Shown: in pieces, positions 12,515 through 28,330 of the stretch
Position numbering within the stretch: the first letter of the stretch is position 1
Layout of the letters: every line of letters begins with the position of its first letter
Assembly: GCA_964647515.1 (NCBI GenBank)
Contig: CAZYHI010000001.1
Coordinates: forward strand, 1-58,860
Source: an uncultured Micavibrio sp.
Lineage (GTDB): Bacteria > Pseudomonadota > Alphaproteobacteria > Micavibrionales > Micavibrionaceae
Reading direction: 5' to 3'
DNA: 58,860 nt
Notes under the pieces: generated by a model
Told to the model about the DNA's origin: nothing
The model's input: only the letters and a program-made list of their open reading frames with translations
Database searches by the model: none
Position numbers and translations under genes: made by a program

Positions 12515-13084
12515 TCATACTTCAACCAACTTATAAAAAATATGCCGACTAATGGTCTTGAGCGGTTTCTCACCCTTCGACCAATAGGGTGACACATAAT
12601 CCGCATGGTAATGCGTTGCGCCGCCCGTATTATCTTTCAACGTGCCAATGACAGCACGGCGCGCAATGCGCAAACAAGTGGCAAAATGAACGTTTTTATC
12701 CGTAACGGTTGTCAGGCGTTTATAACTAGGGTCATTTTTATTCCAACATGAAAACTGATACGGTTTTTGACACACACCAATAATATTATTGCCCCACCAA
12801 TAACGCCCACCACGTTTTTGTGAAACTTTAACACGGTTCAACACAACATTGGCGACAGCCTCCAACCCCGCATGTGGTTCACCGCGCGCCTCCCCAAATA
12901 TTGTACGGGCAAGAACATCGACTTCCAATGAACGATAATATTCTTCCTGTTTTATTTTTTCAGAATTTATTGTTTTGAGTTTTTCTTTCTTGTTTTTTTG
13001 GGGCGTTAGCTTTGCTGATTTTCGATCATGCGGGCGCAACAACCCAATAATGTTTTTAAACATTGGATTTCCTTTCTTTTTCAT
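12515..13084 (-). CDS. cell wall hydrolase, SleB/Hydrolase_2 family (putative endolysin)
   Basis: ARTIFGEARGEPHAGLEAVANVVLNRV, YQFSCWN and ATHYHADYVSPYWS are characteristic of the SleB-type cell wall hydrolase domain. The protein has a basic N-terminal extension. Confidence 0.85.
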   Translation of the reverse strand: MKKKGNPMFKNIIGLLRPHDRKSAKLTPQKNKKEKLKTINSEKIKQEEYYRSLEVDVLARTIFGEARGEPHAGLEAVANVVLNRVKVSQKRGGRYWWGNNIIGVCQKPYQFSCWNKNDPSYKRLTTVTDKNVHFATCLRIARRAVIGTLKDNTGGATHYHADYVSPYWSKGEKPLKTISRHIFYKLVEV

Positions 13085-13145
13085 AGCCGCTCAGACACAT
13101 AAATGTGCTACGCGGGTTCTTTGTAATAATTGTCTTGTCGTGAGT

Positions 13146-13418
13146 TTACCGACGCAAAGCTTCTATCGCTTTGATTTCAATATTTGAAATGCGGTCGTGG
13201 AGTTTTTGAACAATATTTTCGATGCGGTTTGATTGTTTGTCATGCTGTTCACGATAATGTTTTAATGAATTTTTATGAACGGCAAACTCAATCAGCAATT
13301 CATTAAATTGTTCTGTTTTTTGTTCAACTTTTTTTAAACGATAATAAACCACACCTGCTTGTGCGATAATAACAATAACCGTTATCCAATCATTAATTGA
13401 AAATTGTGAAACTTCCAT
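13146..13418 (-). CDS. small type-II membrane coiled-coil protein (spanin- or holin-like, speculative)
   Basis: 90 aa with one N-terminal TM segment (WITVIVIIAQAGVVYY) followed by a helical charged region. It lies between TerL and the muramidase. Confidence 0.4.
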   Translation of the reverse strand: MEVSQFSINDWITVIVIIAQAGVVYYRLKKVEQKTEQFNELLIEFAVHKNSLKHYREQHDKQSNRIENIVQKLHDRISNIEIKAIEALRR

Positions 13419-13430
13419 ATCTTCTCCTTC

Positions 13431-14918
13431 TTAAACTTCAAAATCTGTATTTGCCTGATGGTGGCCTTGCGACGCGTTCCATTTTGATTGCGCAGTCGCG
13501 TATGTTTTTTTAATCCGCACAGGTTCCAACGACAACGCACCCGCCACCGCATCCAACCCATCATCATGGCCGTTCTTTTTATCTGGTTGCCATTCCATCA
13601 TCTCAATCAAAAATGGCGTTTTCTTTACCGATTCATGGACATGAAGCGCCCGCGCGGCCAATACTGCATCAAAACTTTCTAAAATCCGTAAGGCTTTATT
13701 TTTGGTACTGCTTTTTTCTACCACCGCACAGGCGATATTTTTTCCCCCTAGCTCTCGTCTTAAAATCGCGGGTAAGAATTTCCCTAAACCATTAATCTCA
13801 ACCGCAACCGAAGGCACATAAAAACGCTGTAACATCTCTGCCACTTGTTGACATTGAAGGGTCGCTTCATCCTCACCTTCACAACACTCAACCTTGATAT
13901 AAGAGATATGGTGCAGATAATGATTTCCACCCTCATCTGTAAAGACAATAGCCAGAACACTGCTATCACCGTTATTTCCTTTTTTGGCACTACCAAAAGC
14001 AGGATCCCACCACGCACTGCATGATACAATGCGGCTATCCATGACATCTAAATAAGATTGTTTTTGCACTTCGCTATAAACCAAATCATCGTCATAAAAA
14101 TTTAACAAATTATGATCCAGACGGCTGTCTTTTATATTGACAGGTTGCAACATCATTTGCGCCGCAAATTTATGCGGCCCTGCTTGCTTTTTCAAAAGAT
14201 CAATATCGGCCTTGGTAAATTGTTCTGGCCAAACGCTGTTACCTTCTTTATCCAACAAAGGTTGCTTATACCTGTCGAAGCCAGATAGATATGGCTCTTC
14301 TTCATTAATTTCTTTTCGCGCTACATCGCTGTAAATTGAAAAATAACTATGGGGTGTTCCGATATAAAATTGCAGACCACCAGGCACCAAAATAAAATTA
14401 CTTTCATCAAGACGCTCACGCAAGTTCTCACGCTTTTGTGCTGTATCGGAAGTGTTAGGCACTTCAACATCATCATATAAAATAACGTCCGCGCGACACC
14501 CCGTAATATTGGATGTCACCCCTGCGGCCAAGACCGATGGATCACGTAATTCTTTTTGTCTATTTAAGGTAAAGCGATCAGCCGCCCATTGGTCAGGCTT
14601 GATCGGTTTTAGATGAGCGGTTAAAGGATGCTTCTCTATTATCTTCCTGATATTGCGCACCATTTTCGAGGACAACTGATTGTCCGCGGCTAACACTAGG
14701 ATACGCAAATCCGGATCCCGCCAAAGCAGCCACGCCGAGAAGAGTCCGACCAGTGTCGACTTTCCGCATGCCCGAAAGGCCATCATCAAAAGCCGCCTGT
14801 TGCCATGCCGCCACGATGTCTCTAACCACATTGCTATCTTGTAGTGGATCAAAGGCGTTGTGTAATTTTGTTTCTTGTTCCATAAGCTTAAGAATAGCGC
14901 AAAACTGTATTTTTGCAA
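13431..14918 (-). CDS. phage terminase large subunit
   Basis: Walker A AFRACGKST, Walker B-like VILYDDVE, and nuclease-domain acidic motifs WWDPAFG and HDDGLDAVAGAL. The TTG start is preceded by AAGGA. Confidence 0.9.
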   Translation of the reverse strand: MQKYSFALFLSLWNKKQNYTTPLIHYKIAMWLETSWRHGNRRLLMMAFRACGKSTLVGLFSAWLLWRDPDLRILVLAADNQLSSKMVRNIRKIIEKHPLTAHLKPIKPDQWAADRFTLNRQKELRDPSVLAAGVTSNITGCRADVILYDDVEVPNTSDTAQKRENLRERLDESNFILVPGGLQFYIGTPHSYFSIYSDVARKEINEEEPYLSGFDRYKQPLLDKEGNSVWPEQFTKADIDLLKKQAGPHKFAAQMMLQPVNIKDSRLDHNLLNFYDDDLVYSEVQKQSYLDVMDSRIVSCSAWWDPAFGSAKKGNNGDSSVLAIVFTDEGGNHYLHHISYIKVECCEGEDEATLQCQQVAEMLQRFYVPSVAVEINGLGKFLPAILRRELGGKNIACAVVEKSSTKNKALRILESFDAVLAARALHVHESVKKTPFLIEMMEWQPDKKNGHDDGLDAVAGALSLEPVRIKKTYATAQSKWNASQGHHQANTDFEV

Positions 14919-15000
14919 AGCTAATTCCTTTCTATCTCTTTAAAATTTAAGTGGCGAATACCATAATAATCACTAAATAGTAATAAAATAATGAATAATG

Positions 15001-15336
15001 TCACTTGTGAGGAATTTTATTTAAGTCTTCACTGATGCGCTTTTCAGCGGATTTGACCTCTGATTTTATCTGTTCAATATAATCAGACGTGTTTTCTTTC
15101 TTTTCTACCAGCTTATAAAACTTCAAAAGAATTTCGATATTAGTCAGCGCAACTTTACATGCCTTGTGAAATTCAATGAAGTTTTTAATGTCTTCTACAC
15201 TCTCATTTAACGCCTCTTGAGAGTTTCCAAATTTTATAAAATTTTCGTAACTCGCCATAATGCAACGAAGCGCATCGGGTAAAAAATTTTCAATTTGTTG
15301 ATTGGTTTTTTCTTCATTTTTTATATCATCATTCAT
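15001..15336 (-). CDS. hypothetical phage protein (position compatible with a small terminase subunit, speculative)
   Basis: 111-aa acidic helical ORF immediately upstream of TerL in the operon. No motif recognised. Confidence 0.4.
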   Translation of the reverse strand: MNDDIKNEEKTNQQIENFLPDALRCIMASYENFIKFGNSQEALNESVEDIKNFIEFHKACKVALTNIEILLKFYKLVEKKENTSDYIEQIKSEVKSAEKRISEDLNKIPHK

Positions 15337-15367
15337 ATAGTCTTCCCTTTCCTTCAGCAGAACACTT

Positions 15368-17389
15368 CTAAAACTTACTCACAATATACCAACGGCCACC
15401 ATCGGATACGACAGTGATGGCGTTATATTGTGCATTCAAAGGTTGAGCAAAGTTATCTGGACCACTACCGCCAAGCTCACTCACCGTAATTCCATTAGAA
15501 GACACATCCGTCTTTTTAATCGTCACGGTACGCCCGACGGCTTCGGGGGCATTAGCAGGAGGAAGTCGCGCTTCTAACGCGCCACCGAAAGACGACAACA
15601 AATATGTATCAACAGCCATATCAATATCATAAAGACCATTGCCATCAAAAAAGCGCGTGTTCCCTGCTGAACGGTTGGAAGCAATCACAAACCATTCCGC
15701 CCCATTGGATAGCACCATCATATAATCATTTTCTGACCCTAAATAATAATTACGGCTATCGGGCCCATTACCATTTTCTTCGGTAACGGTAATCACGTTT
15801 TTAGAGCTATCGATCTTTTTGAGCACCATCATCACACCCACCGCATCAGATGCTTGTGGTAATAGCACAGTCAATGCGCCACCAAAGCTTGAGAGTAAAT
15901 GTACCGAATGCGATATATCCAACGTCAAAACACCACTGGCGTCATTATATTCGGTATCATAACGTTGCAAGGTCGCGTTCATATCCGTCACGGTTGTCCG
16001 TTGCAAACGGTTTTTATGCGGAAAACCTGCATTATAAGCGGTGTATTCCCCACCCGATAAATCAAAAATCGCCGAACCATCACTGACTGATAAAAGATTA
16101 ATAATCGAGGTTTCGATTGAACCATTTTCAAGTTTAATATTCGGCACTTGATTATAACTTTCTGCATAGGGATTAATCAGCAGCGTCTTATCCGAATTTG
16201 CACCGATGATAAAACAGCCTTGTGATGTGCCGTGGACGTTGGCTTCACAATCAACGAAGCTGTTATTAAAACGCCCTTGCTCCACAAAAAAACCTGCATT
16301 GGAAATTGGCGTCCCTAACGAATAAGCGCGACACGCATGAAATTTATTGGCGTTCGGCGTATCCCCTGCCCCTGTCCGTGTTAGGTGAAATCCATTAACG
16401 GCCATTTGTTCAACCAAGACACGGTCAAAATTGTTCCAATAACATGGCTTATTCGTATCATTATAACCGTCCAGTAAAACACCTGTGTTACTACCTACAA
16501 TGACAATATCGGTAATTGAGTTTTGTACACAAGGACGGTCACGACCAAAAAGTTTAATACCAATATCACCGCCTTCAATTCTGAAATCTGATAGCGTTGC
16601 GTAATCTTCAACAACCTCAATCACATTAAATGTTTTATCTTGCGCCAATAAAACGGATCGTTGCCCCGCACCCTTTAAAGTTTGACGCGCGGCAATGGTA
16701 ATAGGCGCATTTATGAGATACCGCCCTTCAGGAATATAAACACTGTCATAAGCGGCTAAAGCTTGTTGTATCGCCAAAGTATCATCGGTTAAACCATCGC
16801 CTTTCGCGCCGAAATCTTTAACCGAAATCACATCTTTAAATTTATCATCGCTGCTGCGTGTGACCGCCCCAATACCAAGCGCGGTATAATCAGGCAGGCC
16901 TGTTGCGTTTGATAAAGACACAGCAATGGGGTTTCCATCGCCATCAAAACCAAGACCTTTTCCCGCACGTTGATCACGCGGTGGTAATTCATTATGCCCT
17001 TCTGTTTCATGATCGCTATAGCGTAGCATCGGTGATAAATCACGATTGATTTGCTGTATCGATGCGGTTAAATAATCAAGTTCATTATTAATGGCTTGTG
17101 CGCTAAAATCTCCACCTTCTAGAAAGTCAGTCACACGCTCCAACGGCAATCGACGCTCTAACGTGACAACGGTGCCGCTTTGTGGTGGTTCATCAAAAGT
17201 AACATACCCCCCTGCCGTTTCACCAACATCGGTAATGTCAAAACCACTAAATTGTGGTGCGCCATCAAAATAAATTTTCAAATCTTCACTGGCAAAGATA
17301 GGAAAGATATAGGCAAAATCTGTTTGTGTTCCATTGGCGACATAACGCACAAGTGGCGCAATGTCGGGCATTTTTATATGCTCCGTCAT
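15368..17389 (-). CDS. phage tail fibre/tailspike with pectate-lyase-like beta-helix and duplicated C-terminal domain
   Basis: The N-terminus VRYVANGTQTDFAYIFPIF..DLKIYFDG is typical of podovirus tail fibres. VKDFGAKGDGLTDDTLAIQQAL is the Pectate_lyase_3-type motif. There are two C-terminal ~88-aa repeats, each starting ..LLSSFGGAL. Confidence 0.8.
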   Translation of the reverse strand: MTEHIKMPDIAPLVRYVANGTQTDFAYIFPIFASEDLKIYFDGAPQFSGFDITDVGETAGGYVTFDEPPQSGTVVTLERRLPLERVTDFLEGGDFSAQAINNELDYLTASIQQINRDLSPMLRYSDHETEGHNELPPRDQRAGKGLGFDGDGNPIAVSLSNATGLPDYTALGIGAVTRSSDDKFKDVISVKDFGAKGDGLTDDTLAIQQALAAYDSVYIPEGRYLINAPITIAARQTLKGAGQRSVLLAQDKTFNVIEVVEDYATLSDFRIEGGDIGIKLFGRDRPCVQNSITDIVIVGSNTGVLLDGYNDTNKPCYWNNFDRVLVEQMAVNGFHLTRTGAGDTPNANKFHACRAYSLGTPISNAGFFVEQGRFNNSFVDCEANVHGTSQGCFIIGANSDKTLLINPYAESYNQVPNIKLENGSIETSIINLLSVSDGSAIFDLSGGEYTAYNAGFPHKNRLQRTTVTDMNATLQRYDTEYNDASGVLTLDISHSVHLLSSFGGALTVLLPQASDAVGVMMVLKKIDSSKNVITVTEENGNGPDSRNYYLGSENDYMMVLSNGAEWFVIASNRSAGNTRFFDGNGLYDIDMAVDTYLLSSFGGALEARLPPANAPEAVGRTVTIKKTDVSSNGITVSELGGSGPDNFAQPLNAQYNAITVVSDGGRWYIVSKF

Positions 17390-17478
17390 TTTTGTGTCCT
17401 TTCAATTTTTGAGGATTTATTTGTATTAAGAAGTCAGTTATAGTGAAGGGAGTTAGGCTCCCTCGATAAAAAAATCAT

Positions 17479-17868
17479 ATGAAGAAAAATTTAAAAAAAA
17501 TCATACGCAATCAGTTTTACTGTATAGTATCAGTATTACTTCTTATGTTTTTTATCGTTGTTATTGACGATATTACTGAATCATTATCCACCCTTTATGG
17601 CTATGATGATTTTTTTACACATCTATGGAATGTAGGTTTTATTTTTCTAAATCTATCCATGGTTTTTATTTTATATAGTCGAGCAAAAATAATTGGAAAA
17701 AGTATAAAAAATATTTTTTCTATAACATCTATAGTGTTTTATTTTCTTTTGCTCTTAGAGGTGAAAATATTTCATTCCGAAAACATGATTACAATTTATA
17801 TTTTTTTGTTAACTTCTTTTTTATATTTAATAATTCTAACACCCTATATCTTATTAAAGAAAATTTAA
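17479..17868 (+). CDS. small integral membrane protein (opposite-strand cassette)
   Basis: 129 aa with about four hydrophobic segments, very AT-rich, antisense to the structural operon. Its stop abuts the stop of the convergent ORF at 17869. Confidence 0.5.
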   Translation: MKKNLKKIIRNQFYCIVSVLLLMFFIVVIDDITESLSTLYGYDDFFTHLWNVGFIFLNLSMVFILYSRAKIIGKSIKNIFSITSIVFYFLLLLEVKIFHSENMITIYIFLLTSFLYLIILTPYILLKKI

Positions 17869-18366
17869 TCAATCCCTTTTCTTTGGTGATTTTATTAAAA
17901 CATCTATCAATGCTTTTTGAAAATCCTTCAACACATTATCTAAATGATCTGATTTCTGTCTTGCTAACTCACTGCTGGATTCAGGGTCATCATTGGCCAA
18001 CATGTCTTCAAGACGCTTTTGATCTTCGGTCATTCTTTCCTTCGTGCGTTGTTCAGAATTCTTCATCACATCAATAAGCTTGTTTCCTTTTTTACGGGCT
18101 TTGTTCACTTTCTTCGCCGCATCGGCTTGTAAAACTTCTTTTCGCAATTCCTTTTCTGTCTCGCCACCAGGGTATAAAACACCATCAACTTTCAATCCCT
18201 TTTCACCTTGAAATTTTTGAATAGCTTGGTCTGTTTCACGTTCAATAATACCATTATCAATTGGCGCATCACGATATCCCGTATCATTAAGGGCATTTTT
18301 CACAATCAGTACATCGGCTTCATCATTTTGAACAAAATTACCTACAGAATTTTTTATATGTTTCAT
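17869..18366 (-). CDS. peptidoglycan-binding-domain protein (virion-associated, putative)
   Basis: TDQAIQKFQGEKGLKVDGVLYPGGETEKEL matches the PG_binding_1 repeat signature. The C-terminal half is charged and helical. Confidence 0.55.
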   Translation of the reverse strand: MKHIKNSVGNFVQNDEADVLIVKNALNDTGYRDAPIDNGIIERETDQAIQKFQGEKGLKVDGVLYPGGETEKELRKEVLQADAAKKVNKARKKGNKLIDVMKNSEQRTKERMTEDQKRLEDMLANDDPESSSELARQKSDHLDNVLKDFQKALIDVLIKSPKKRD

Positions 18367-18437
18367 GTTATGTCTTTCCTTTTGTGGTAATAAACAATCT
18401 ATTTGATTTCACGTCACTCTTATGATTAATTGGCTTC

Positions 18438-18773
18438 ATGAAAATATTTTTGACATTATTGTTGTTTGTCGTGACTTATTTGTCTGCGCCTACATTCTCC
18501 ATTCAAAAGTCTTACGCGCAAAGTCAAGATCGATTAGATTCTGCGCGCAGCAGCATCGATCTTTATTACGAAGAACTTGCCGAAAAAAAAGCCAAACGTG
18601 ATTCTTATTCCTTTGAAATAGAAGAAGATGAAAAAGACGACATCAACTATAAGGCAGACCGTTCAACAACATTAAAGCAACCAAAGCAGCAGCGATTAAA
18701 TCGTCATGGCAAAGGACAGTTAAAATCATCTGCTGATGTTTTGAAAAATTTACTAAGCCCTGCCAAAAAATAA
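18438..18773 (+). CDS. small secreted protein (opposite-strand cassette)
   Basis: 111 aa. The signal peptide MKIFLTLLLFVVTYLSAPTFSIQKSYA is followed by a highly charged Lys/Glu/Asp-rich region. Confidence 0.5.
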   Translation: MKIFLTLLLFVVTYLSAPTFSIQKSYAQSQDRLDSARSSIDLYYEELAEKKAKRDSYSFEIEEDEKDDINYKADRSTTLKQPKQQRLNRHGKGQLKSSADVLKNLLSPAKK

Positions 18774-18777
18774 AATC

Positions 18778-19299
18778 CTAAAAACTATCTAATATTCCTG
18801 AAACACTGCTTAATTGGTCACCCAATCGAGCGGTATTGGTGAGTTTATTTTTTTCTTCTAACTGCGTACGCGCCAAGGTATTTTTACTACTTTGCTGCAA
18901 TAAATTTTGATTCAAAGACTCTATTTTTAACTTATCTAACCGTTCACGGTTTTCACGTTGGTCTTCAGATTCTTCAAAAAGACCAAGTAGAACCGCCTCA
19001 GAGGATCCGTCACCTTGAGAAACACCGCTTGAACCAAATGCCGCGCGTTGTCGTGCCACCGCACGTTTTAAGGCATTGCGTCTTTGCGTTTCAGCCTCTT
19101 TCCCTTGCGTTTCAATTTGCGCACGACTTAAGGCCGCATCTTGCCGTGCCTGTTGTTGTTGTAAGGCTTGCTGTTGCCCTAACTGCCTTAAAACTCGATC
19201 ATCTTGTTTCTTCGCCGGGTTATCAATGACATTTGCAATTGTATTGACTGTTTCGAATAAGGCCAACGCTTGTGTTGCTATCGGTAGAACTGCTCCCAT
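18778..19299 (-). CDS. coiled-coil phage protein (putative internal virion protein)
   Basis: 173 aa, Gln/Arg-rich coiled coil (QQQALQQQQARQDAAL). Its position after the nozzle gene corresponds to the internal virion proteins of T7-like phages. Confidence 0.45.
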   Translation of the reverse strand: MGAVLPIATQALALFETVNTIANVIDNPAKKQDDRVLRQLGQQQALQQQQARQDAALSRAQIETQGKEAETQRRNALKRAVARQRAAFGSSGVSQGDGSSEAVLLGLFEESEDQRENRERLDKLKIESLNQNLLQQSSKNTLARTQLEEKNKLTNTARLGDQLSSVSGILDSF

Positions 19300-19323
19300 T
19301 ATTTTAATCTCCTTTTATATAGT

Positions 19324-21222
19324 TTAATCATTAATCTTTATTTCAATCGCCGTTGAAAGAAGCGTAAATTTATAGGGAACTTCCTGTTCAATACGCCAAT
19401 AAGGATGTGGTCCATTTTTGAGCCACCCTAATGATCGAACACGAATATCATCAGTCACCAACGGCGGTGGTGTGTCCAAAATTTCATCTTCACCAAATTG
19501 TTTTAATGTCACATCTTTTAACCCACGCCCCACATCAAGACGTAACGCTTGCGTTTCTTGCACACGGAAGATGGCTTCAATCAATCTTGTTTTCTTGCCA
19601 GCTGTTGCTTCACTCATTTCCAAAGGTAATGGCTCTAAAACATGTGTATAGGGCAAGCCGACTTCTATCTGTAGCGCAGGATCATCCAACGTCACTGCGC
19701 CATCAATAACCTGTAAAGGGTTATCCAAGACAATACCATCGGCGATGACAACGACGTCACGTCCTTCCAAATGATCTAAACCCGACCATGTTTGTCGTGG
19801 ATTATCGGTTTGTCCTGTCAGCGCAGAATCCAAATTAATCTCAACATCAAAACATTCAATATAAAAAGCGCCATCGCGCTCAACCAATAAATAAGTATTT
19901 CGTCCGACAACACTAACCGAATGAACATGCCCCAATGTTTCATGCAACGTCCATGCGCGCACTTGCTCTGCCCTATAAAGGGTCATTGTCGCTATCTTTC
20001 CATCATCACGCACCGCAAAAACAAGACGACGATGCTGATCATAATCTTGATCAATGACATTTTGTGGAATATGGCGTGAGACCAAAGCTAAATCAATCGC
20101 GGTATAGGCTTGCTCAATATCCGTATATAAAAATTCTCTAATTTCCTGTCCGTTATCGGCGACAAAAATTGTCGCACCATCGACCGTCACGGGAGGAACA
20201 TAACGTCCAATCACCGAACCCACACGCGTTTGACGGTTTAACTGTAAGGATGTTGGCGTCAAAGGCGTACCTGTGACAATCCATTCCGCACCACTGGTAA
20301 AAACTTGCAAATGGCGACCAGAAAACACACCGCGTATCGCATTAACTTGGTCAGATAAAATAGAAAATTCAATGGCTTCGTCATCCAACCCCTCACCCAA
20401 ATCAAAGTTAAACAAATCACCAGAGCGTGAAAACCAAAGACGATTTGGTAAATCACGCGAACCTCCAATAACCAAACGATCTTGATGAAAGGCCACCGTC
20501 ACGGGATATCCACGAACGGAGGAGTATGCCTGTTCAAACCAATCAATCGTTGTCGCTGTATCGGGTAAATCTTCAATCAATTCAACGGTGATAACTGTTG
20601 GTGAATCATAGCTTAAAATCTGTGCTTGTTTTCCCGCAATTTGCATCCGCGTTCCTGCATGACCAAGAGAAAACACATCATCAGAAGCCGTTAAAGTCAC
20701 CGTGCCGCTTATACCACTGGGTGTTAAGGTCACATTACTATCGGCAAACTTATAAAAAGGTTGGTAAATGATATTTTCATCACTGAAAAACATCCAATCT
20801 TCTAAAACAAATTGCCCAAGATCATTACGTATTAATTTTTGCGGCACATAATCAGGATGAACCAGCAACAATGTATCCGCACTTTGCGTCCATGCCACTT
20901 GGGATATATCATTTTGTGACCATGGTGATGTGATGCTTGTAATTTTCACATCATCAAAATAGACATCAATTTTATTGGCCGTTAAAACCAGTAAATATGT
21001 TTGCTGTGCGTTAAATTCAAACGGGATAAGACGGCCATTCCCTTCTACCGTATCTATATAGCGCAAGCCATCACGGCGCGTGACACCACCCGTAGGATAG
21101 ATAAAAAGATTTTGCATTTTCGCCGCGCCATTTTTGTAAGAAACCAATTCTCCACGTCCCAATAAATCTTCGGAAATCTCCCCTGCGGTAAAATTACTTT
21201 TAACTTGTCTTGCTCTTGTCAT
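19324..21222 (-). CDS. podovirus tail tubular protein B / nozzle-like protein
   Basis: 632 aa. The N-terminus NFTAGEISEDLLGRGELVSYKNGAAKMQNLFIYPTGGVTRRDG resembles gp12-like tail proteins of alphaproteobacterial podophages (from memory). Its position after the gp11-like gene fits. Confidence 0.55.
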   Translation of the reverse strand: MTRARQVKSNFTAGEISEDLLGRGELVSYKNGAAKMQNLFIYPTGGVTRRDGLRYIDTVEGNGRLIPFEFNAQQTYLLVLTANKIDVYFDDVKITSITSPWSQNDISQVAWTQSADTLLLVHPDYVPQKLIRNDLGQFVLEDWMFFSDENIIYQPFYKFADSNVTLTPSGISGTVTLTASDDVFSLGHAGTRMQIAGKQAQILSYDSPTVITVELIEDLPDTATTIDWFEQAYSSVRGYPVTVAFHQDRLVIGGSRDLPNRLWFSRSGDLFNFDLGEGLDDEAIEFSILSDQVNAIRGVFSGRHLQVFTSGAEWIVTGTPLTPTSLQLNRQTRVGSVIGRYVPPVTVDGATIFVADNGQEIREFLYTDIEQAYTAIDLALVSRHIPQNVIDQDYDQHRRLVFAVRDDGKIATMTLYRAEQVRAWTLHETLGHVHSVSVVGRNTYLLVERDGAFYIECFDVEINLDSALTGQTDNPRQTWSGLDHLEGRDVVVIADGIVLDNPLQVIDGAVTLDDPALQIEVGLPYTHVLEPLPLEMSEATAGKKTRLIEAIFRVQETQALRLDVGRGLKDVTLKQFGEDEILDTPPPLVTDDIRVRSLGWLKNGPHPYWRIEQEVPYKFTLLSTAIEIKIND

Positions 21223-21246
21223 TATATCTATCCTTTTAATTTCTTC

Positions 21247-21813
21247 TTACCGCACATCAATCAACGTAAAATCTTCAATACGGTTCGGGCTGTCTTGTTG
21301 CGCATCAATTTGACGCGCCATCGCAAATTCATCTTTCGCCAACTTATATAAAGCGGTTGAACGTGATGTACTTTCAGTCACGGGAATACAAAATTCTGCC
21401 GCCAACTTCGTAATCAGCGCCATATCGAAAAATGGCGGAAAGCTCTCTTCTTCTGGACGATAAATATAAGTCAGCACAACTGCATCGGCATTAGTATAAA
21501 GTTGCCCATTCACAAGACGGTAATTCAGTCCACGACCGCGCTGACCATCGCCAGCAGAAATAGCACGAAGAAAATCAAGCGGTAATTGAAATGCGTTTTG
21601 ATAATCCGCCAATGGCGCATCATTTAATTTTGTCAATGCCAACTGCCCTGTCGCAAATGTCCATGGATATGATGACAACATCGCATCACGAACAGGCGCG
21701 AACAAAGCATTCGCAATTTCTGATTCTGCGGTATCATCATTAAAAGATGTAATAGGTGCTGCGCCCAACCTAACCAGTGCGCGCGAGCATAGTCCAATGT
21801 CATTTAAAGCCAT
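21247..21813 (-). CDS. podovirus tail tubular protein A / adaptor-like protein
   Basis: The ATG at 21813 with RBS AAGGAGA is preferred over the longer track ORF. MALNDIGLCSRALVRLGAAPITSFNDDTAESEIA..SSYPWTFA resembles gp11-like adaptor proteins (from memory). Confidence 0.5.
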   Translation of the reverse strand: MALNDIGLCSRALVRLGAAPITSFNDDTAESEIANALFAPVRDAMLSSYPWTFATGQLALTKLNDAPLADYQNAFQLPLDFLRAISAGDGQRGRGLNYRLVNGQLYTNADAVVLTYIYRPEEESFPPFFDMALITKLAAEFCIPVTESTSRSTALYKLAKDEFAMARQIDAQQDSPNRIEDFTLIDVR

Positions 21814-21910
21814 TGTGTGTCTCCTTATGTATTGAATAAAAATCAAAAAGACAGCCAAAAAATAAATCAATATCTATGGCTGCCTTTCCTTGTTACGGAG
21901 GTTAGAAAAC

Positions 21911-22150
21911 CTATGCGAGGGCCGCAACACTGACGACGCCAGACGTCACATCAGTCACAATATAAAATTGTGCGCTTGCGCCTGCGTCGATATCAACATT
22001 GGCGATGATAAGATCATTTTCATCCATCATCTCCGATGCTGTATTAAAATATCCAGGCGTTGTAACAGAATCATCTTCTGTTTTAAAATGCCATAGAGTG
22101 AAGTTGTTGGCGTATGCGAGTACGCTTAAATTAGAGAGTTGTAAACTCAT
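21911..22150 (-). CDS. small phage structural-module protein, function unknown
   Basis: 79-aa ORF with RBS GGAGA, located between the capsid and adaptor genes. Confidence 0.5.
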   Translation of the reverse strand: MSLQLSNLSVLAYANNFTLWHFKTEDDSVTTPGYFNTASEMMDENDLIIANVDIDAGASAQFYIVTDVTSGVVSVAALA

Positions 22151-22187
22151 GGTTATCTCCTTTTTTGAGTTATTAAATAAAACAAAC

Positions 22188-22269
22188 CGTCATCTCGAAC
22201 GCACCAATTTTTGGGGCGGAGAGATCTCAAATTACTTCATGAGATTCTTCGCATTCGCTCGGAATGACG
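22188..22269. repeat. miniature palindromic intergenic element (CGTCAT...ATGACG family) just downstream of the capsid gene
   Basis: Imperfect terminal inverted repeat cgtcatctcga (22188-22198) / tcggaatgacg (22259-22269), with an internal hairpin atctca/tgagat. Confidence 0.6.
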
Positions 22270-22287
22270 ACTTATTTTTAGATGTTA

Positions 22288-23124
22288 TTAATCAGGTGTT
22301 TCATCACAATTAATTGTCACAACACCCGCCTCATCAATCAGAACAGACCCTTGGCTCATCATGTTATTGACAAAATGAGCGGCGCGATCACCATGCCAGC
22401 TAATATCTGTTTGAACATCACTACCGACGGCATGGCCGATGGCTGTTTTGTGATAGAAATAACAAGAACGAATATCGTCACCATCAATCGGCAATCCAGA
22501 ATGTGGAATCCAGATTGTACCCAACCACATTTTAGCTTGAGACGTACCATTAGCGTATGGAAGTGCGCCGTCACCGATATAATCAGCATTTACAAATTCA
22601 TCAATTTGTAACAAATCACTCCATTGTTTCCAACCAACAGCGGCAAAACGCTGACCATCATCTGGCACATCGGTTTCACCAAACAATTCAAAAGCTTCAA
22701 GAACTTTATCTTTTGTTAAGCCTGTATTGGCATCACCAATGATATTGGCAGATGATGTTGTTAGCGCATTAATGATCATCTCATCTGTTTTACGGCCAAG
22801 CGCAGACGCACCCGCACTGGCAATAACCTGACGTTCATCAATATTCAATTTTAACTCATCCAGATGATCAACCCAGTCACCCGCGTAGAAATCTTGTAAA
22901 ACACATTCTACATTTGAGTGAACCAGATTCATCACAGGCACCATGCCATGTGTTGATTTGGTCGAGGCGGTTCCTTTACCGACCTTTTGAAAGACGGTTG
23001 AAGACCCAGTTACTTTATTTGTTGTACGTACAGAGTTTCTTAATTTAGATCCCTGACGTTGGTAAGCTTCATGCACTTCACGTTCGAACTGCTTGATAAA
23101 AGCTTGGTCAATAGATTCTGACAT
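22288..23124 (-). CDS. phage major capsid protein
   Basis: 278 aa. The N-terminus FIKQFEREVHEAYQRQGSKLRNSVR..VFQKVGKGTA is typical of a major capsid family in alphaproteobacterial podophages (from memory). Its position after the scaffold gene fits. Confidence 0.75.
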   Translation of the reverse strand: MSESIDQAFIKQFEREVHEAYQRQGSKLRNSVRTTNKVTGSSTVFQKVGKGTASTKSTHGMVPVMNLVHSNVECVLQDFYAGDWVDHLDELKLNIDERQVIASAGASALGRKTDEMIINALTTSSANIIGDANTGLTKDKVLEAFELFGETDVPDDGQRFAAVGWKQWSDLLQIDEFVNADYIGDGALPYANGTSQAKMWLGTIWIPHSGLPIDGDDIRSCYFYHKTAIGHAVGSDVQTDISWHGDRAAHFVNNMMSQGSVLIDEAGVVTINCDETPD

Positions 23125-23466
23125 TGCAATTTTCCTTTTTGTTTAAAATTATGTTGAAAATAAAACGCGAGCATAAGTTTTCGCATTCGCACTTTCGTGC
23201 AAATACGGCTCATCAAACGTAAATAGGGAAATGTTTCAGGCAAATATGAATAAAAATTTGTTTTCTGAAACTATTTGAGATGCCTTAACGAATAGAGTGT
23301 TAAGAACAAAACAACGCCATAAACCAAGATGGTAATATGGCGTTGATAGAACTAATATATGAATTTATTCCTATAAAATCAACTCTTTTTTTGGATAAAT
23401 TCTTAAAATACATTGAAAAACATTACTTATGTCTATAGATTGTGAATCAAGGGAGAGTTAAAAACT

Positions 23467-23850
23467 ATGTTTACATCAATATTAGAAACACTAAAAAACA
23501 CAGCCAGTAACGATGATCAAGATGCGCGCCGCGAATATGAACGCCGCGAAACTGATAGCTGTGTTGGTATTATTGACGGTATTTCCTACCCTATACTCGA
23601 TTGGAGTAAAGGTGGCGTCGCCCTTTCAGGTGATGATAAACAATTCAGTCTCAATACCACAAAAACAATCACGCTAAGATTTAAATTAGAAAATCGGATT
23701 GTTGATGTCTTACATAGTGGTCGCATTTTAAGAAAAGGACGCGATAAATTTGTTTTACAATTCGCGCCCCTCACTCAAAACATTGATCGTCAGTTCAACC
23801 ATATTGTTGATGATTATGTCTCTCAACAATTCGCAAACTCACAATTATAA
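23467..23850 (+). CDS. PilZ domain (c-di-GMP-binding) protein
   Basis: 127 aa. RREYER (RxxxR) is followed 19 residues later by DWSKGG (DxSxxG). RBS GGGAGAG lies 9 nt upstream of the ATG, and a TTGAAA-N17-TAGATT promoter-like sequence lies at 23413-23441. Confidence 0.7.
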   Translation: MFTSILETLKNTASNDDQDARREYERRETDSCVGIIDGISYPILDWSKGGVALSGDDKQFSLNTTKTITLRFKLENRIVDVLHSGRILRKGRDKFVLQFAPLTQNIDRQFNHIVDDYVSQQFANSQL

Positions 23851-23863
23851 TACAATCATCGAT

Positions 23864-24496
23864 TTATTTGCCGTACATTTTTTGAAAACCTTCAGTGACT
23901 TTGGCAACAAAAGACGGATCTTTATCACGCCAATATTTTGGATCACGCATCATAGATTGTAAATCCATGCCATCTGACGCATTAGTGTTTTTAAAATCAC
24001 CAATCTTTGGTTCTTCACCGCGCATCATATTATAAAGTGCCAATACCCCTTCGTACGAACTGGTTAAAGAATCTAACGCATCGACAGGTAAGTTCTTTTG
24101 ACCAAAAGATAGAAGCTGTCTTGAAATTTCTTTCCATTTTTCTGCACCACCGAAATACTCAACCAGCTTTTCAACCTCACGGTCAGCCTTAAAATCACCA
24201 GCCATTTCAACGACCATCGGCACCATTTTTTCAACGGCCAAATCATAAACAAACTGCACCTGTTCATTGGTAAAACCTTTTTCGTGCATACGTCTGTTCA
24301 TGTCTTCATCTTCGTCAAACAAACCATGTGAACAATCAACACAATAATCTGAATGTGTTTTAGGCGCCCTTGGGGCATTCGACATTTTTTGCTCCAACGC
24401 TTTGTAAGATTGCGCCATCGCTCCTATATTTACTTCACCTGTTTCTTTATTTTTAAATTTTTCTGGTATTTCATTATCTAATAAAGTGTCATTCAT
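23864..24496 (-). CDS. phage scaffolding protein
   Basis: 210-aa acidic helical protein. IPEKFKNKETGEVNIGAMAQSYKALEQKMS is a typical scaffold N-terminus, and its position between the portal and capsid genes fits. Confidence 0.6.
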   Translation of the reverse strand: MNDTLLDNEIPEKFKNKETGEVNIGAMAQSYKALEQKMSNAPRAPKTHSDYCVDCSHGLFDEDEDMNRRMHEKGFTNEQVQFVYDLAVEKMVPMVVEMAGDFKADREVEKLVEYFGGAEKWKEISRQLLSFGQKNLPVDALDSLTSSYEGVLALYNMMRGEEPKIGDFKNTNASDGMDLQSMMRDPKYWRDKDPSFVAKVTEGFQKMYGK

Positions 24497-24542
24497 ATTT
24501 TTATCTCCTTAAGTTATGAATATTTTAAATTAAATTTTTCTT

Positions 24543-24803
24543 TTAATTATTTTTGCCCTGCTCAACAAAATTAAGAATTGTTGAAACCAATGATCGCTGT
24601 CCGTCCATATGGCGTAACTGATCATTTGATGCCCCTGCTCCTAAATTTCGATGAAAGGTTATATATTGCAGATATACCAAAGCTTTCTTTCCATCATCGC
24701 TAGAAAAAACACGCGTAAACACACGCTTTATATTTTTTTGATCGATTTTGGATAAATGTGAGACATCGATTGCTTCCATTTTTGATTTATTCTTCCAAAA
24801 CAT
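24543..24803 (-). CDS. small phage protein, Bbp19-like
   Basis: The start at 24803 (ATG preceded by GGAGG at 6 nt) is preferred over the track start at 24854. FSSDDGKKALVYL...MDGQRSLVSTIL resembles the Bbp19-type protein that follows the portal in BPP-1-like phages (from memory). Confidence 0.5.
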   Translation of the reverse strand: MFWKNKSKMEAIDVSHLSKIDQKNIKRVFTRVFSSDDGKKALVYLQYITFHRNLGAGASNDQLRHMDGQRSLVSTILNFVEQGKNN

Positions 24804-26358
24804 TTTCGACCTCCAAATTATTCTCCAGATCATCCCCCAAATCATCCAAGACATCTAAGGGTGTTGGTAATATTTCTTTTTTCAACAAATCACGCGGAAC
24901 GCCCAATGTTTCGGCCAGTAATTTTACGGCCTTCGACGTGTCAACCATGGAAGTACCCGCGCCGCCCATAGAGGACGCAATATTAATCCATGTTAAAATG
25001 TCATTCACATGACCGCGCCCTTGCATCCGCGCCAAGGGGGAGCGATATTCAAGCATGATATAGCGACCATCTAAGGCAAGATCGGGAATCTCACCGCGTC
25101 GTTTTAAAATTGCAAAGGCACGCTCAACAAGAGGCGTGAGCAATTCAGATTGCAATCGTCCATATGTTGCTCCTAACAATAATGACATCTCCGAAGAACG
25201 TTCCAACACTTCTGTTGCTGTCATTTTCTTACTTACAACAGGGCCTAATTTATCCGCCAATAAAGCATGACGAATACGCGCCCTTAAATCACTTAAAATC
25301 AGCTCTGACACATCAAAACGTCCAGGCATATCCAAGGCTTTCAAGCCTTGCGACCCGACCGCCTTTGGAATAATAGCTCCAGGGACAAGCTCAATATTAG
25401 CAGGATTTAACACCCCATCATCATCGGCTTGCCAAATACCTGTCACCGCGATAGAAGCATTTTTCAAAATCAATTCGACAACTTTGTTCGCCGTTTTAAT
25501 GTCAGGTAATGCCTTCATCACAGGCGATCGTCCATAAATCTCTCCCGGGGATTTCATCCAACGAAATGAAATAGATGGTGATTTATGAAACTGTCCTTGC
25601 TTTAATAACGTCGGATAACCATCTTCGGTTAACATGGCAGTATATTGATAAATTCCATTTTCAGGGAGAATAGCTTCAAGAACACCAAAACGGTTTTGCG
25701 TATCGGCATCACCTTGACGCATAATATGCGATGGCAATTCTGCTTGCGGATAACGTTTTTTCAATTGTGATAATGTTAAAGATATGCTTCGATATGATCC
25801 ATCTAAAAATCCATTATCGCCTTCCTCCAACACAACATCCTGCAACGGCACAGATGAAAATTTAAAGGCTGAATATTCACCAATTTCCGTTTCTTCAAAA
25901 AACAAAGTCGATGTCCCGCCGACAACCAAATCAAGAAAAGCTTGGTGAATTTCAACACTAAAATTTGAACGATCAAAATGTGATTGTATTTTACGCGAAA
26001 TATCTTCCAAAACAGGCTCTAATTCCTGCGCTTCGCTCTCACTTAAATCTGGCCCTGCCTTTAAGCCAAACCACTGCGTCCATGGCGGTGTTAAATGCCC
26101 CAACAAACTCGCAGCCAATTGATCCACCGCATCCATCGCTGTGCCATCATATAAATGCTGTGTACGGCTGGCCCCCGCTCCACCAAATTGTGCGCTGTCA
26201 CTACGTTGAGGAAGCGCATAATCATAACAATCATCCCAATGCGTTTCCCAATTTTGACGACGCGCTTTAGCTTGGCTATACCCCTCCATAATTTTTTGAA
26301 GCTTTTGCGTTTGTTCTAAATCTTCTTGTGTTTTTTCTTTTATCTGAAAATCATCCAT
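24787..26358 (-). CDS. phage portal (head-to-tail connector, podovirus type)
   Basis: 523 aa with an N-terminal RRQNWETHWDDCYDYALPQR motif, typical of gp8-like connector proteins. RBS AGGAGA. Confidence 0.85.
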   Translation of the reverse strand: MDDFQIKEKTQEDLEQTQKLQKIMEGYSQAKARRQNWETHWDDCYDYALPQRSDSAQFGGAGASRTQHLYDGTAMDAVDQLAASLLGHLTPPWTQWFGLKAGPDLSESEAQELEPVLEDISRKIQSHFDRSNFSVEIHQAFLDLVVGGTSTLFFEETEIGEYSAFKFSSVPLQDVVLEEGDNGFLDGSYRSISLTLSQLKKRYPQAELPSHIMRQGDADTQNRFGVLEAILPENGIYQYTAMLTEDGYPTLLKQGQFHKSPSISFRWMKSPGEIYGRSPVMKALPDIKTANKVVELILKNASIAVTGIWQADDDGVLNPANIELVPGAIIPKAVGSQGLKALDMPGRFDVSELILSDLRARIRHALLADKLGPVVSKKMTATEVLERSSEMSLLLGATYGRLQSELLTPLVERAFAILKRRGEIPDLALDGRYIMLEYRSPLARMQGRGHVNDILTWINIASSMGGAGTSMVDTSKAVKLLAETLGVPRDLLKKEILPTPLDVLDDLGDDLENNLEVENVLEE

Positions 26359-26360
26359 GA

Positions 26361-26618
26361 TTATTCTCCTAACAAAGTTTTAGGTTGCGTGGTAGTGTCA
26401 TTATCATTGACCAACAACCCACGAAAACTTGTCGCGATCGTTCCTAATCGTCCACGTGAACGACGTAAAAGACTGTTCTGTCTGCCTTCAGCCCTCACCT
26501 CCTCATCTGTTTGTGTATTGGTCGGTTCTGTCGTTGTCACTGTTGGTGTTGTGACAACAGGCGCCGCAGGAACGGTGATGACCGTTGGTGCTTTTGGTTT
26601 ACTGGTTATGCTACCCAT
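26361..26618 (-). CDS. small phage protein with Thr/Val/Pro-rich tract and basic C-terminal motif
   Basis: 85 aa: MGSITSKPKAPTVITVPAAPVVTTPTVTTTEP, then LLRRSRGRLGTIATSFRGLL. It overlaps the upstream ORF by 8 nt and ends 2 nt before the portal start. Confidence 0.5.
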   Translation of the reverse strand: MGSITSKPKAPTVITVPAAPVVTTPTVTTTEPTNTQTDEEVRAEGRQNSLLRRSRGRLGTIATSFRGLLVNDNDTTTQPKTLLGE

Positions 26619-27030
26619 GGAATTTCCTTTCGATTTTATGTTTTTTGTAATTAATTTTTTTATGTTTTTTTAAATATTTAAATAGCTGCCACGGCGTGAT
26701 GATGTAACGAGCATGAACGCCTAAAATACGTTTTATAAATTCAACACAGCTATAGAGCATCACGGGCGCGGGTTTTTTATGATTTTTATCAATGACCGCC
26801 TGTACCACTTGATATCCTTGATTTTCCAACCATTGTGGTAAATTAAAAACGGCGTCAATGTGATGATGCATTTCTATATCTGTATAAGCAGATAACGGAT
26901 CAAGGCTTAGCCAATTTTTGCCATCATTAAGCAAAATAAAACAATGACGAAACCCTGGTTTTAATATTTTCAACCATGCAATATCAGTATGCCCTGTAAA
27001 GACAACCCATACCTGCTGTTCGTTTGTCAT
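26611..27030 (-). CDS. hypothetical phage protein
   Basis: 139 aa. The start overlaps the upstream stop (TAATG). A conserved-looking His (FRHCF) and Cys (YSCVEFIKRILG) could indicate a permuted NlpC/P60-like fold, but that is speculative. Confidence 0.45.
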   Translation of the reverse strand: MTNEQQVWVVFTGHTDIAWLKILKPGFRHCFILLNDGKNWLSLDPLSAYTDIEMHHHIDAVFNLPQWLENQGYQVVQAVIDKNHKKPAPVMLYSCVEFIKRILGVHARYIITPWQLFKYLKKHKKINYKKHKIERKFHG

Positions 27031-27494
27031 TAAAGATCAGTATCATTCGAATGAATAACCGCTTCTTCCAACCATGATTCATTTGCCTTTAAATCAAAAG
27101 TTTTTTTTGGCACAACAATATTTTTTCGAATTAAAATAGGTTCTAAACGGTTTAACGCCTCGCCCCATAATTTATCAGCACGCATTTCTTTAACGCGGCG
27201 TGGGTCTGGTGCCATCTGCCGACGGCCATAATGGCGTAACACCAAAATATGATCCCACAGCAACATGCGGTTGCGATATAAACCATTCAAGATTTTCAAA
27301 ATATCATTGGGTTCGCACGGCCTAGATAAAGATGACATCCCCGCAACATATCTCGCACCATCGACTTTGGCTTGCTGTGCCAAAACAAACCAGAACCATG
27401 CCTCTTCCACCGTATCAAAAGGTATCGTGTTTGGGTCTGTAGATTCCTGATTGCCACCCGTCCCCACCTTGTCGTCGCTACTCTTTTTTTTCAT
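27030..27494 (-). CDS. hypothetical protein, first gene of the phage-like operon (possible DNA-binding/regulatory or small terminase role)
   Basis: 154 aa with EEAWFWFVLAQQAKVDGARY, RPCEPNDILKILNGLYRNR and VLRHYG motifs that I recall from alphaproteobacterial phage/element proteins of unknown function. Confidence 0.45.
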   Translation of the reverse strand: MKKKSSDDKVGTGGNQESTDPNTIPFDTVEEAWFWFVLAQQAKVDGARYVAGMSSLSRPCEPNDILKILNGLYRNRMLLWDHILVLRHYGRRQMAPDPRRVKEMRADKLWGEALNRLEPILIRKNIVVPKKTFDLKANESWLEEAVIHSNDTDL

Positions 27495-27517
27495 CGCATT
27501 TCCCTTTAGATACAGTT

Positions 27518-27532
27518 GTTCCGTTTATGTTC
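27518..27532 (-). promoter_or_regulatory. alphaproteobacterial-type LexA (SOS) box GAAC-N7-GAAC
   Basis: The plus strand reads gttccgtttatgttc, which is GAACATAAACGGAAC on the minus strand. It lies 2 nt downstream of a TATGTA -10 (27535-27540) with a TTGACA -35 (27559-27564), and 24 nt upstream of ATG 27494. Confidence 0.5.
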
Positions 27533-27682
27533 ACTACATAATAGGATTATATTCATTTTGTCAAGTAAATAATATGCTTTTTTTCCTATTTATTTAATTT
27601 GCACTTTTGGGAGTTTAATCCTACACTTGTCTGAGATTCAAAAATCACTGTAAAAACAACGCGCTAACAAGAAAGTTTTTCT

Positions 27683-28330
27683 ATGCTGACACATGAACAA
27701 ATTTGGCAAGCCATTGACCGTTTAGCAAAAACATTTGGTTACAGTCCTTCTGGCTTGGCCAAACAAGCCGGTTTAGACGCGACATCATTCAATAAAAGTA
27801 AACGCATCAGTCCCGATGGCAAACCAAGATGGCCATCCACCGAAAGCGTTTCAAGAGTGTTGGCGGCCACGGGCGCAACAATGAGTGATTTCGTCGCCAT
27901 GGTTGACGATTTTGATTCACCCCATAGTAAACAAACCGCCACCATTCCCGTTATTGGATTTGCACAAGCAAGTAAACAAGGATTCTTTGATGAAGAAGGT
28001 TGCCCACAAGGCGACCGTTGGAATGAAATACAATTCCCTGATTATAACGCAAGCAACAACGATGGGTATTACGCCTTGGAAATCAGTGACGATTCAATGC
28101 ATCCCCTTTATCGTAACGGTGATGTGTTGGTCGTATCACCCAAAGCACAATTGCGTAACGGTGATCGTATTGTTCTGAAAACAACCGCTGGTGACGTCAT
28201 GACAAAAGAGCTTATCAAACAAAACGCCACGCGCGTTGAAATAAAACCCTTCAACCCCAAACATAAGAACGAAGAAATATCTATGAAGGATATTGCATGG
28301 ATGGGACGTATTATCTGGGTTTCTCAATAA
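27683..28330 (+). CDS. HTH (XRE-like) / S24 peptidase family transcriptional regulator
   Basis: 215 aa. The N-terminal GYSPSGLAKQAGLDATSFNKSKR is HTH-like. The C-terminal LEISDDSMHPLYRNGDVLVV and MTKELIK fit an S24 Ser/Lys dyad context. Confidence 0.85.
   Translation: MLTHEQIWQAIDRLAKTFGYSPSGLAKQAGLDATSFNKSKRISPDGKPRWPSTESVSRVLAATGATMSDFVAMVDDFDSPHSKQTATIPVIGFAQASKQGFFDEEGCPQGDRWNEIQFPDYNASNNDGYYALEISDDSMHPLYRNGDVLVVSPKAQLRNGDRIVLKTTAGDVMTKELIKQNATRVEIKPFNPKHKNEEISMKDIAWMGRIIWVSQ

Follow-up and report, generated by a model that had tools for sequence, protein, structure and literature searches.

The stretch of DNA analysed here, referred to as the window, comprises 58,860 nucleotides (nt) from an uncultured Micavibrio sp. 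and carries a phage-like cluster of about 15 kb (approximately 12515-27494) with podovirus-like head, tail, terminase and lysis genes. The first cluster gene (27030-27494, minus strand), which encodes a helical protein of 154 amino acids (aa) with unassigned function, diverges from a plus-strand gene (27683-28330) for a 215-aa regulator that has a helix-turn-helix (HTH) at its N-terminus and a C-terminal peptidase S24 domain (PF00717, residues 89-211). To the left the cluster is flanked by icd, folD and acnA, and to the right the regulator gene is followed by pyrE, NAD kinase, purC, rodA, mrdA, mreD and mreC. The subject of this work is the spacer between the two divergent genes (27495-27682), in which an earlier note on this DNA had seen an SOS-type box for LexA together with two promoters, and from which it had concluded that the whole structural operon may be inducible by DNA damage through host LexA and/or the S24/HTH protein.

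Box and promoters in the divergent spacer

The box is a perfect direct repeat GTTC-N7-GTTC on the plus strand at 27518-27532 (GTTCCGTTTATGTTC; GAACATAAACGGAAC on the minus strand), and its position is conserved across related loci. It belongs to a predicted leftward promoter on the minus strand, in which TTGACA (27564-27559) is followed by 18 nt, TATGTA (27540-27535), another 2-3 nt and then the box; a weak -10 may be read as TTATGT or TATGTA within 27535-27541. Downstream of the box, at 27494, lies the ATG of the 154-aa open reading frame (ORF). As the box starts 2-3 nt past the -10, it would cover the predicted transcription start. The -35 is kept in nearly all loci, where it appears as GTCAAG on the plus strand, and A/T-rich hexamers occupy the place of the -10 in relatives. 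A second predicted promoter, TTGCAC (27599-27604) and TACACT (27622-27627) on the plus strand with a spacing of 17 nt, faces the S24/HTH gene, and relatives show TTTACn-N17-TAnnCT at this place. All of the sequence elements named in the earlier note were thus recovered at the coordinates it had given.

The predicted leader of the regulator mRNA measures about 50 nt in the window. In four of the related loci (L009, L013, L014 and L016) only 3-6 nt separate the regulator's predicted -10 from the ATG, and the mRNA may be leaderless there, like that of lambda cI from PRM.

A scan of the whole window led to a single perfect GTTC-N7-GTTC, the one at 27518-27532. Since 1.42 perfect boxes are expected window-wide by chance, with at least one in 75 of 100 shuffles, this box is not significant on its own. 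Boxes with one mismatch were not enriched either (29 found, 39 expected). One match against an expectation of 1.42 is what a chance match in an AT-rich spacer would look like, and the decision on this explanation came from the comparison with other genomes.

Conservation and probable LexA identity of the box

For this comparison we used 80 related loci (1.36 Mb in all) around the best regulator homologues out of at least 579 relatives from a scan of one genome per species, and the taxonomic labels of metagenome-assembled genomes (MAGs) were used as given. The same podovirus-like cluster, divergent from the regulator, was detected by tblastn in 38 loci with a GC content of 36-71%. A perfect box was found beside the first cluster gene in 28 of these 38. 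In 26 loci it lies in the regulator spacer itself; in the other two (L017 and L060) the spacer holds inserted genes, and the box adjoins the 154-aa gene and not the regulator. The insertion in L060, a MAG of Micavibrio aeruginosavorus (CP066681.1), includes a gene for a SinI-type restriction endonuclease (7776-8462). None of the 42 loci without the cluster carried the box upstream of the regulator. Outside regulatory sites, perfect boxes occurred about once per 50 kb of the 1.36 Mb, which corresponds to about 0.004 per 188-bp spacer, and it is the position of the box together with its conservation in 28 of 38 orthologous loci that sets it apart from a random hit. The explanation by chance is thereby refuted, and we give it practically no weight.

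In the two closest relatives, with regulators 99% and 87% identical to that of the window, the box reads GTTCCATTTATGTTC and GTTCCGCTTATGTTC, all substitutions being confined to the N7. Of 24 Micavibrio-like loci, 22 have the box at a distance of 25-28 nt from the conserved GTCAAG (plus strand; CTTGAC on the minus strand), 20 of these at 26-27 nt, and the sequence between box and -35 has diverged despite this constant distance.

The repeat GTTC-N7-GTTC is the motif of alphaproteobacterial LexA (PMC3323433), and the earlier note had read it in this way. We compared the box with 80 alphaproteobacterial lexA loci from metagenomes, which were collected with LexA queries and of which 76 had enough upstream sequence. 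Of these lexA genes, 74 (GC content 44-72%) carried a perfect GAAC-N7-GAAC or GTTC-N7-GTTC within 200 nt upstream, and one such lexA-promoter box, GAACACAAACGGAAC, differs from the window box GAACATAAACGGAAC at a single base. A position matrix for the N7 was then built on 47 distinct lexA-promoter boxes. Boxes of the cluster reached a mean score of 1.78 bits, similar to left-out true lexA boxes (1.73 bits), compared with -2.11 bits for background boxes in the loci (cluster against background, Mann-Whitney p = 3e-5), and the window box itself scored 1.96 bits. The boxes outside regulatory sites were located in coding regions or beside genes for lysyl-tRNA synthetase, a peptidoglycan-binding protein or TerB, none of them next to a recognisable SOS gene. 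Its occurrence in 28 of 38 cluster-bearing loci and the fit of its N7 core to lexA boxes support a reading of the box as a real, conserved cis-element of the LexA type of Alphaproteobacteria that goes with the phage-like cluster.

Additional perfect boxes were observed in Magnetospirillum-type loci. In six of them (L039, L044, L051, L059, L062 and L070) a second box follows directly after the stop codon of the regulator, at approximately 10650-10760, where it sits in a clear plus-strand promoter, TTGACT-N5-GTTCACTTATTGTTC-TAT. The conserved ORF behind it (about 87 aa, motif LERRYDGPIP) gave no match in Pfam. A third box lies between the 139-aa gene, the second gene of the cluster, and the portal gene (L039:9028, L051:9035 and L081:9014). 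Doublets were seen in L032 (6761-6786) and L016 (5470-5511): one of these loci has three GTTC units in 11-bp phase, equal to two overlapping boxes, and in the other, two oppositely oriented boxes are separated by 12 nt, resembling the paired boxes at many lexA promoters.

Some spacers are rearranged. In L090, whose regulator is 87% identical, the cluster is not beside the regulator; the place 46 bp upstream is taken by an unrelated 340-aa gene, with the breakpoint at about window position 27636, and adjacency of the cluster is therefore polymorphic among near relatives. In L089 (1-90) a Nextera-like sequencing adaptor is fused to the spacer at the contig start, which is an assembly artefact.

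The S24/HTH regulator, its predicted operators and the proposed circuit

The regulator belongs to a very large family with at least 8000 candidates, and its N-terminal 70 residues were almost invariant among 20 homologues. The best 80 relatives begin with Micavibrio-like MAGs (up to 75% identity) and extend to Magnetospirillum, Rhodovibrio, Rhizobium, Sinorhizobium, Xanthobacteraceae and Hyphomonadaceae (about 50%), and a homologue from a Caulobacterales MAG is 51% identical to the window protein. RogA of Caulobacter, the 'repressor of GTA activators' (GTA, gene transfer agent), is a protein of 213 aa with HTH and S24-like domains, and its homologues are reported throughout the Alphaproteobacteria, with an enrichment in Rhodospirillales (PMC9632790). 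The gene ends, the only portions compared, are also alike: the rogA primers of that work translate to MAT-LSHGQIW and SQ-stop (PMC9632790), and the window family has MLTHEQIW and WVSQ-stop. From the architecture, the gene ends and the operator type described below, the window protein is most likely a RogA homologue.

The Ser/Lys dyad of the window protein (S138, K175) aligns to Ser119/Lys156 of E. coli LexA and is present in 80 of 81 homologues, and the Ala-Gly cleavage site is found in 78 of 81. Caulobacter RogA is said to be without key cleavage residues (PMC9632790); the family examined here keeps the dyad and Ala-Gly almost throughout. The three exceptions at the cleavage site include the window protein, with A96-S97 (27968-27973). 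A relative with 87% identity (P0004) has Leu in place of the catalytic Ser, and the regulator of L060 has lost the dyad. RecA-activated self-cleavage, which had been expected for the S24 protein, is doubtful for the window protein because Ala-Ser replaces Ala-Gly, and the reaction may be decaying in this small marine clade. A comparison of the regulator with the CI repressor of a prophage did not hold either, as it belongs to a chromosomal family spread across the Alphaproteobacteria with or without the cluster.

Three predicted RogA-type operators, 16-mers related to one another, were located in the spacer. O1 (27542-27557, TAGGATTATATTCATT) lies between the leftward -35 and -10, O2 (27573-27588, TATGCTTTTTTTCCTA) just upstream of the leftward -35, and O3 (27608-27623, TGGGAGTTTAATCCTA) overlaps the -10 of the regulator's own promoter. 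The only two occurrences of TAATCCTA in the 58.9-kb window fall within this spacer. Upstream of the regulator, at a distance of up to 150 nt, TTCCTA was present in 28 of 40 cluster-less loci (background 0.017) and in 28 of 39 cluster loci (background 0.033). Exact palindromes TAGGA-N6-TCCTA, often in the form TAGGAA-N4-TTCCTA, were found 11 times in the 1.36 Mb, all of them at regulatory positions: eight at capsid promoters (4 nt from GTCAAG), two in the spacer and the remaining one upstream of the regulator gene of a Rhizobiaceae MAG that lacks the cluster. They match the repeats reported for Caulobacter RogA, where the gafYZ promoter fragments bound by RogA in vitro carry two GGAA-N4-TTCC inverted repeats (PMC9632790). 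The neighbouring S24/HTH protein had also been proposed as a co-regulator, and it very probably acts as such, through operators of its own that differ from the box and share its spacer.

The presence of both site types next to each other raises the question whether the S24/HTH protein, and not LexA, binds the box. It is LexA-like in architecture, it adjoins the box, and both co-occur in every box-bearing locus. A different motif, TTCCTA or TAGGA-N6-TCCTA, nevertheless tracks the regulator gene with and without the cluster and matches the repeats bound by RogA; the N-terminal 70 residues are almost invariant, yet cluster-less loci never show the GTTC box; and the N7 of the box fits lexA promoters. 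Binding of the box by the S24/HTH protein is consequently very unlikely.

One variant of the spacer may be mentioned at this point. The metagenome contig L001 (JGI 3300000976, BBAY71; 2.6 kb) is identical to the window sequence except for the loss of 152 bp (27523-27674) at a GTTT microhomology, which takes out the second GTTC together with both promoters and the three RogA-type sites. This deletion may be natural or may have arisen in the assembly.

A further predicted RogA-type operator (23358-23373, TATGAATTTATTCCTA) lies in the spacer of another predicted promoter on the minus strand, TTGATT-17-TATATT (23382-23354), which was called by the promoter scan, serves the capsid gene and the genes downstream, and has no LexA box. 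Its leader contains, directly behind the predicted start, a terminator-like hairpin with a U-rich tail (23312-23345, minus strand; folding free energy -18.2 kcal/mol, z -5.4), the arm GGCGTTGAT of which recurs in other loci, and which may be a target of anti-termination. Upstream of this promoter, a gene on the opposite strand encodes a PilZ-domain protein of the cyclic di-GMP receptor type (23467-23850, plus strand; PF07238), located between the scaffold and capsid genes and kept in 21 loci. Contrary to the suggestion of the earlier note, LexA probably does not control the whole structural operon as a single unit, as the capsid-to-terminase genes sit behind this gene with a separate promoter.

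From these elements we consider it likely that the box is a working host-LexA operator over the leftward start, that a RogA-family repressor acts on both cluster promoters and its own, and that DNA damage opens the first promoter; the identity of the binding protein, repression and damage induction are inferred from the arrangement of sites. LexA at 27518-27532 would block a first set of genes, from the 154-aa gene through portal and scaffold, and the RogA-like protein would bind the TAGGA-N6-TCCTA-type sites, three in the spacer and the fourth in the capsid promoter. In undamaged cells both repressors would hold the cluster silent. After damage, activated RecA would trigger LexA self-cleavage and leave the first promoter open, and full expression would also require relief of the RogA-like repressor. 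In most relatives this relief could come from RecA-stimulated cleavage of the repressor itself, and in this organism probably from another route. It may be speculated that a product of the early block is needed for late (capsid) expression, since the capsid-leader hairpin recalls the anti-termination by GafZ in Caulobacter.

Several observations weigh against this assignment of a LexA-controlled leftward start. A strict sigma-70 scan of 27400-27760 called no promoter at all, so both spacer promoters are to be taken as weak consensus matches (the leftward -10 is without the final T, and the rightward -35 agrees at three of six positions). A perfect box is absent from 10 of the 38 cluster-bearing loci. 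The Rhodospirillales group carries the box in inverted orientation with respect to the genes, e.g. GAACATAAACAGAAC on the regulator's strand in Rhodovibrio. Used as tblastn queries against the window and all of the loci, the E. coli proteins LexA, RecA, SSB, RuvA, UvrA, UvrB, RuvB and DinB gave no match for lexA, recA, uvrA, uvrB, ruvAB, ssb or dinB in the window or at any locus of the cluster-bearing lineages. Moreover, in L009, L013 and L016 a plus-strand TTGACA is located 5 nt upstream of the box, which may thus also, or instead, serve a rightward promoter.

This last geometry, which is the same as in the Magnetospirillum promoter TTGACT-N5-GTTCACTTATTGTTC-TAT, leads to an alternative in which the box mainly governs rightward transcription and makes the regulator SOS-inducible, the effect on the phage-like genes being secondary or shared via the overlapping divergent promoters. 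The genes inserted in the spacers of L017 and L060, which run co-directionally with the regulator, would fit. The plus-strand -35, however, was seen in few loci, whereas nearly all loci have the minus-strand -35, at a precise spacing from the box, and the regulator homologues of the 42 cluster-less loci keep TTCCTA sites and never the box. We therefore regard a mainly rightward function as unlikely. The 10 loci that have lost the box, and the absence of a LexA of this type among the genes at loci of the cluster-bearing lineages, could likewise mean that the box belongs to another factor with a similar direct-repeat specificity or is a non-regulating relic of the ancestral phage. Against both stand its retention over genomes of 36-71% GC with changes only in the N7, the fixed phasing to the -35 and the extra boxes at other promoters of the same loci, which makes either origin highly improbable. 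With LexA preferred as the binding protein and the leftward start as its target, the interpretation given in the earlier note is, taken as a whole, partly supported.

The phage-like cluster and its relation to known systems

Besides the 154-aa protein, whose gene was found in 38 loci and whose family (n = 403) consists of hypothetical proteins only, the early block on the minus strand encodes a 139-aa protein with invariant His/Cys/Asp/Cys (26611-27030) and an 85-aa ORF (26361-26618), both with unassigned function, a T7-type portal or head-tail connector (24787-26358; PF12236, E 3e-137; phrog_332), a Bbp19-like small phage protein (24543-24854; PF25181) and a scaffold similar to the T7 capsid assembly protein (23864-24496; PF05396). 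Behind the predicted capsid promoter follow, also on the minus strand, the major capsid protein (22288-23124; PF19821, E 7e-83), tail tubular proteins A (21247-21870; phrog_394) and B (19324-21222; phrog_376), a peptidoglycan-binding protein, a tail fibre or spike that contains a pectate-lyase-like domain (15368-17389), a 111-aa ORF, the large terminase subunit (13431-14918; phrog_38, E 3e-84; Terminase_6C) and a SleB-like cell-wall hydrolase (12515-13084), with which the cluster probably ends on the left. The interval from tail tube B to the fibre (17390-19323) contains only ORFs of 111-173 aa, one of them with the peptidoglycan-binding domain, and no large gene for an internal-core or ejection protein of the T7 gp15/gp16 type; the particle machinery looks reduced. 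Searches with the 154-aa and 139-aa proteins gave nothing in Pfam, PHROGs or NCBIfam, and their AlphaFold models (predicted local distance difference test, pLDDT, 76 and 90) had no Foldseek match at E < 0.1 in PDB and BFVD. Spacer and capsid leader gave no match in Rfam.

No integrase, replication gene, tRNA or flanking att-like repeat was found in the cluster and its flanks. An inducible temperate prophage with a CI repressor was rejected from the missing integrase, att sites and replication genes and from the occurrence of the regulator family in 42 cluster-less loci. A cluster of the RcGTA type (gene transfer agent of Rhodobacter capsulatus), which is of the HK97-type siphovirus kind and had been mentioned in the earlier note, was also rejected, as the T7-type portal (PF12236), the PF19821 capsid and the podoviral tail tubular proteins A and B point to a podovirus-like origin of the T7/HTVC010P type. 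The GC content of the cluster equals that of the host side in each locus over a range of 35-70% (rho 0.98), and the identities of cluster proteins to those of the window track the regulator identities (rho 0.5-0.93), a trend shared by the housekeeping neighbours. The capsid is more conserved than the products of pyrE, nadK and purC (88% versus 71-73% in L002). An IMG/VR scan with the 154-aa protein led to two contigs only, one of them host DNA. One contig filed as viral but consisting of host DNA is L083 (IMG/VR uncultivated virus genome, UViG, 3300026519_000643), which contains nadK, pyrE and a regulator of which only the HTH (85 aa) is left, followed by the box GAACACAAAGGGAAC and the cluster.

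From the GC match, the co-divergence with the host, the capsid conservation and the missing mobility and replication genes, the cluster fits a long-resident, selected element of the GTA kind. With the LexA-type box beside RogA-type sites, it has the appearance of a phage-derived particle system that has long been resident and is under host control, and not of an ordinary prophage. To our knowledge, the known alphaproteobacterial GTAs are of the RcGTA (siphovirus) or Bartonella type, with an indirect link to SOS, and Rhodospirillales are mostly without RcGTA-type clusters. In the literature, as far as it was covered, we found no podovirus-type GTA described for Magnetospirillum, Micavibrio or Rhodospirillales, a weak sign of novelty as coverage was incomplete. 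Only tentatively, and with more doubt than confidence, do we suggest an undescribed family of podovirus-derived, GTA-like elements, vertically inherited in Micavibrio-like and Rhodospirillales Alphaproteobacteria and wired directly to two RecA-responsive repressors, with host LexA acting on the early promoter and a RogA-family protein on both promoters.

What distinguishes the system is a different phage lineage, apparently long kept by the host, with a LexA-type operator on the first promoter and RogA-type operators on both. If true, this would be a simple circuit for damage-induced particle production, in which the 154-aa and 139-aa genes could encode activators, anti-terminators or antirepressors that open the terminator-guarded capsid operon. 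Cultivable carriers are Magnetospirillum moscoviense BB-1, M. sulfuroxidans J10, Paramagnetospirillum caucaseum SO-1 and Rhodovibrio sodomensis DSM 9895, and the comparison across 80 genomes also yields a definition of the RogA-family operator.

Among phages, Pelagibacter podoviruses come closest by their capsid. That of phage EXVC031P (Hodr) is 51% identical to the capsid of the window (about 33% for the HTVC010P type), and Hodr has the same order of portal, Bbp19-like protein, scaffold, capsid and tail tubes A and B. Hodr has 34 kb and about 60 genes, compared with about 15 kb in the window cluster, which is without replication and large internal-core genes; the 154-aa, 139-aa and S24 genes were not found in the 23.7 kb of Hodr examined.

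With regard to control, a host LexA site on a phage-derived promoter, combined with an element-specific repressor to give SOS-dependent induction (predicted in our case), recalls CTXphi, coliphage 186 and the Gifsy phages. At PrstA of CTXphi, LexA and RstR act together at one promoter, and in 186 (tum) and the Gifsy phages LexA controls antirepressor genes. These are replicating mobile phages with palindromic LexA boxes of the gamma type, whereas the cluster described here is without integrase and replication genes, keeps its synteny across orders and carries the alphaproteobacterial direct repeat. For R. capsulatus, Kuchinski et al. 2016 reportedly found that the effect of LexA on RcGTA is indirect, through cckA, and that LexA is needed for production. 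The present cluster would share with RcGTA, or the GTA of Dinoroseobacter, the link of an SOS regulator to phage-like particle production in Alphaproteobacteria (PMC6473078), but differs in that the box lies directly on the first cluster promoter and predicts repression.

The closest likeness in regulation is that to RogA-GafYZ of Caulobacter crescentus, from the regulator of about 213-215 aa with HTH and S24-like domains for phage-derived particle genes (a predicted function here), the operator type GGAA-N4-TTCC and the gene ends, and the terminator-like leader of the late genes recalls the anti-termination by GafZ in the C. crescentus GTA, CcGTA (PMC9632790; PMC11150451). No GafY or GafZ homologue was recognised in the cluster, a statement made without comparison with the GafY and GafZ sequences themselves. 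In contrast to Caulobacter, the regulator gene is an immediate neighbour of the structural cluster and has its predicted sites in the structural promoters, the cluster is of the podovirus type and not of the HK97/RcGTA type, and the Ser/Lys dyad and Ala-Gly are conserved in almost the whole family (for Caulobacter RogA, see PMC9632790). The LexA-type box is an addition, as the chromatin immunoprecipitation sequencing (ChIP-seq) of Caulobacter RogA led to two promoters, with no LexA site described in the available part of that report (PMC9632790). If these assignments are true, the cluster would represent a second, independent domestication under the same regulator family as the Caulobacter GTA. 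RogA-family regulators would then be general keepers of domesticated phage particles, which would explain the enrichment of RogA homologues reported for Rhodospirillales (PMC9632790).

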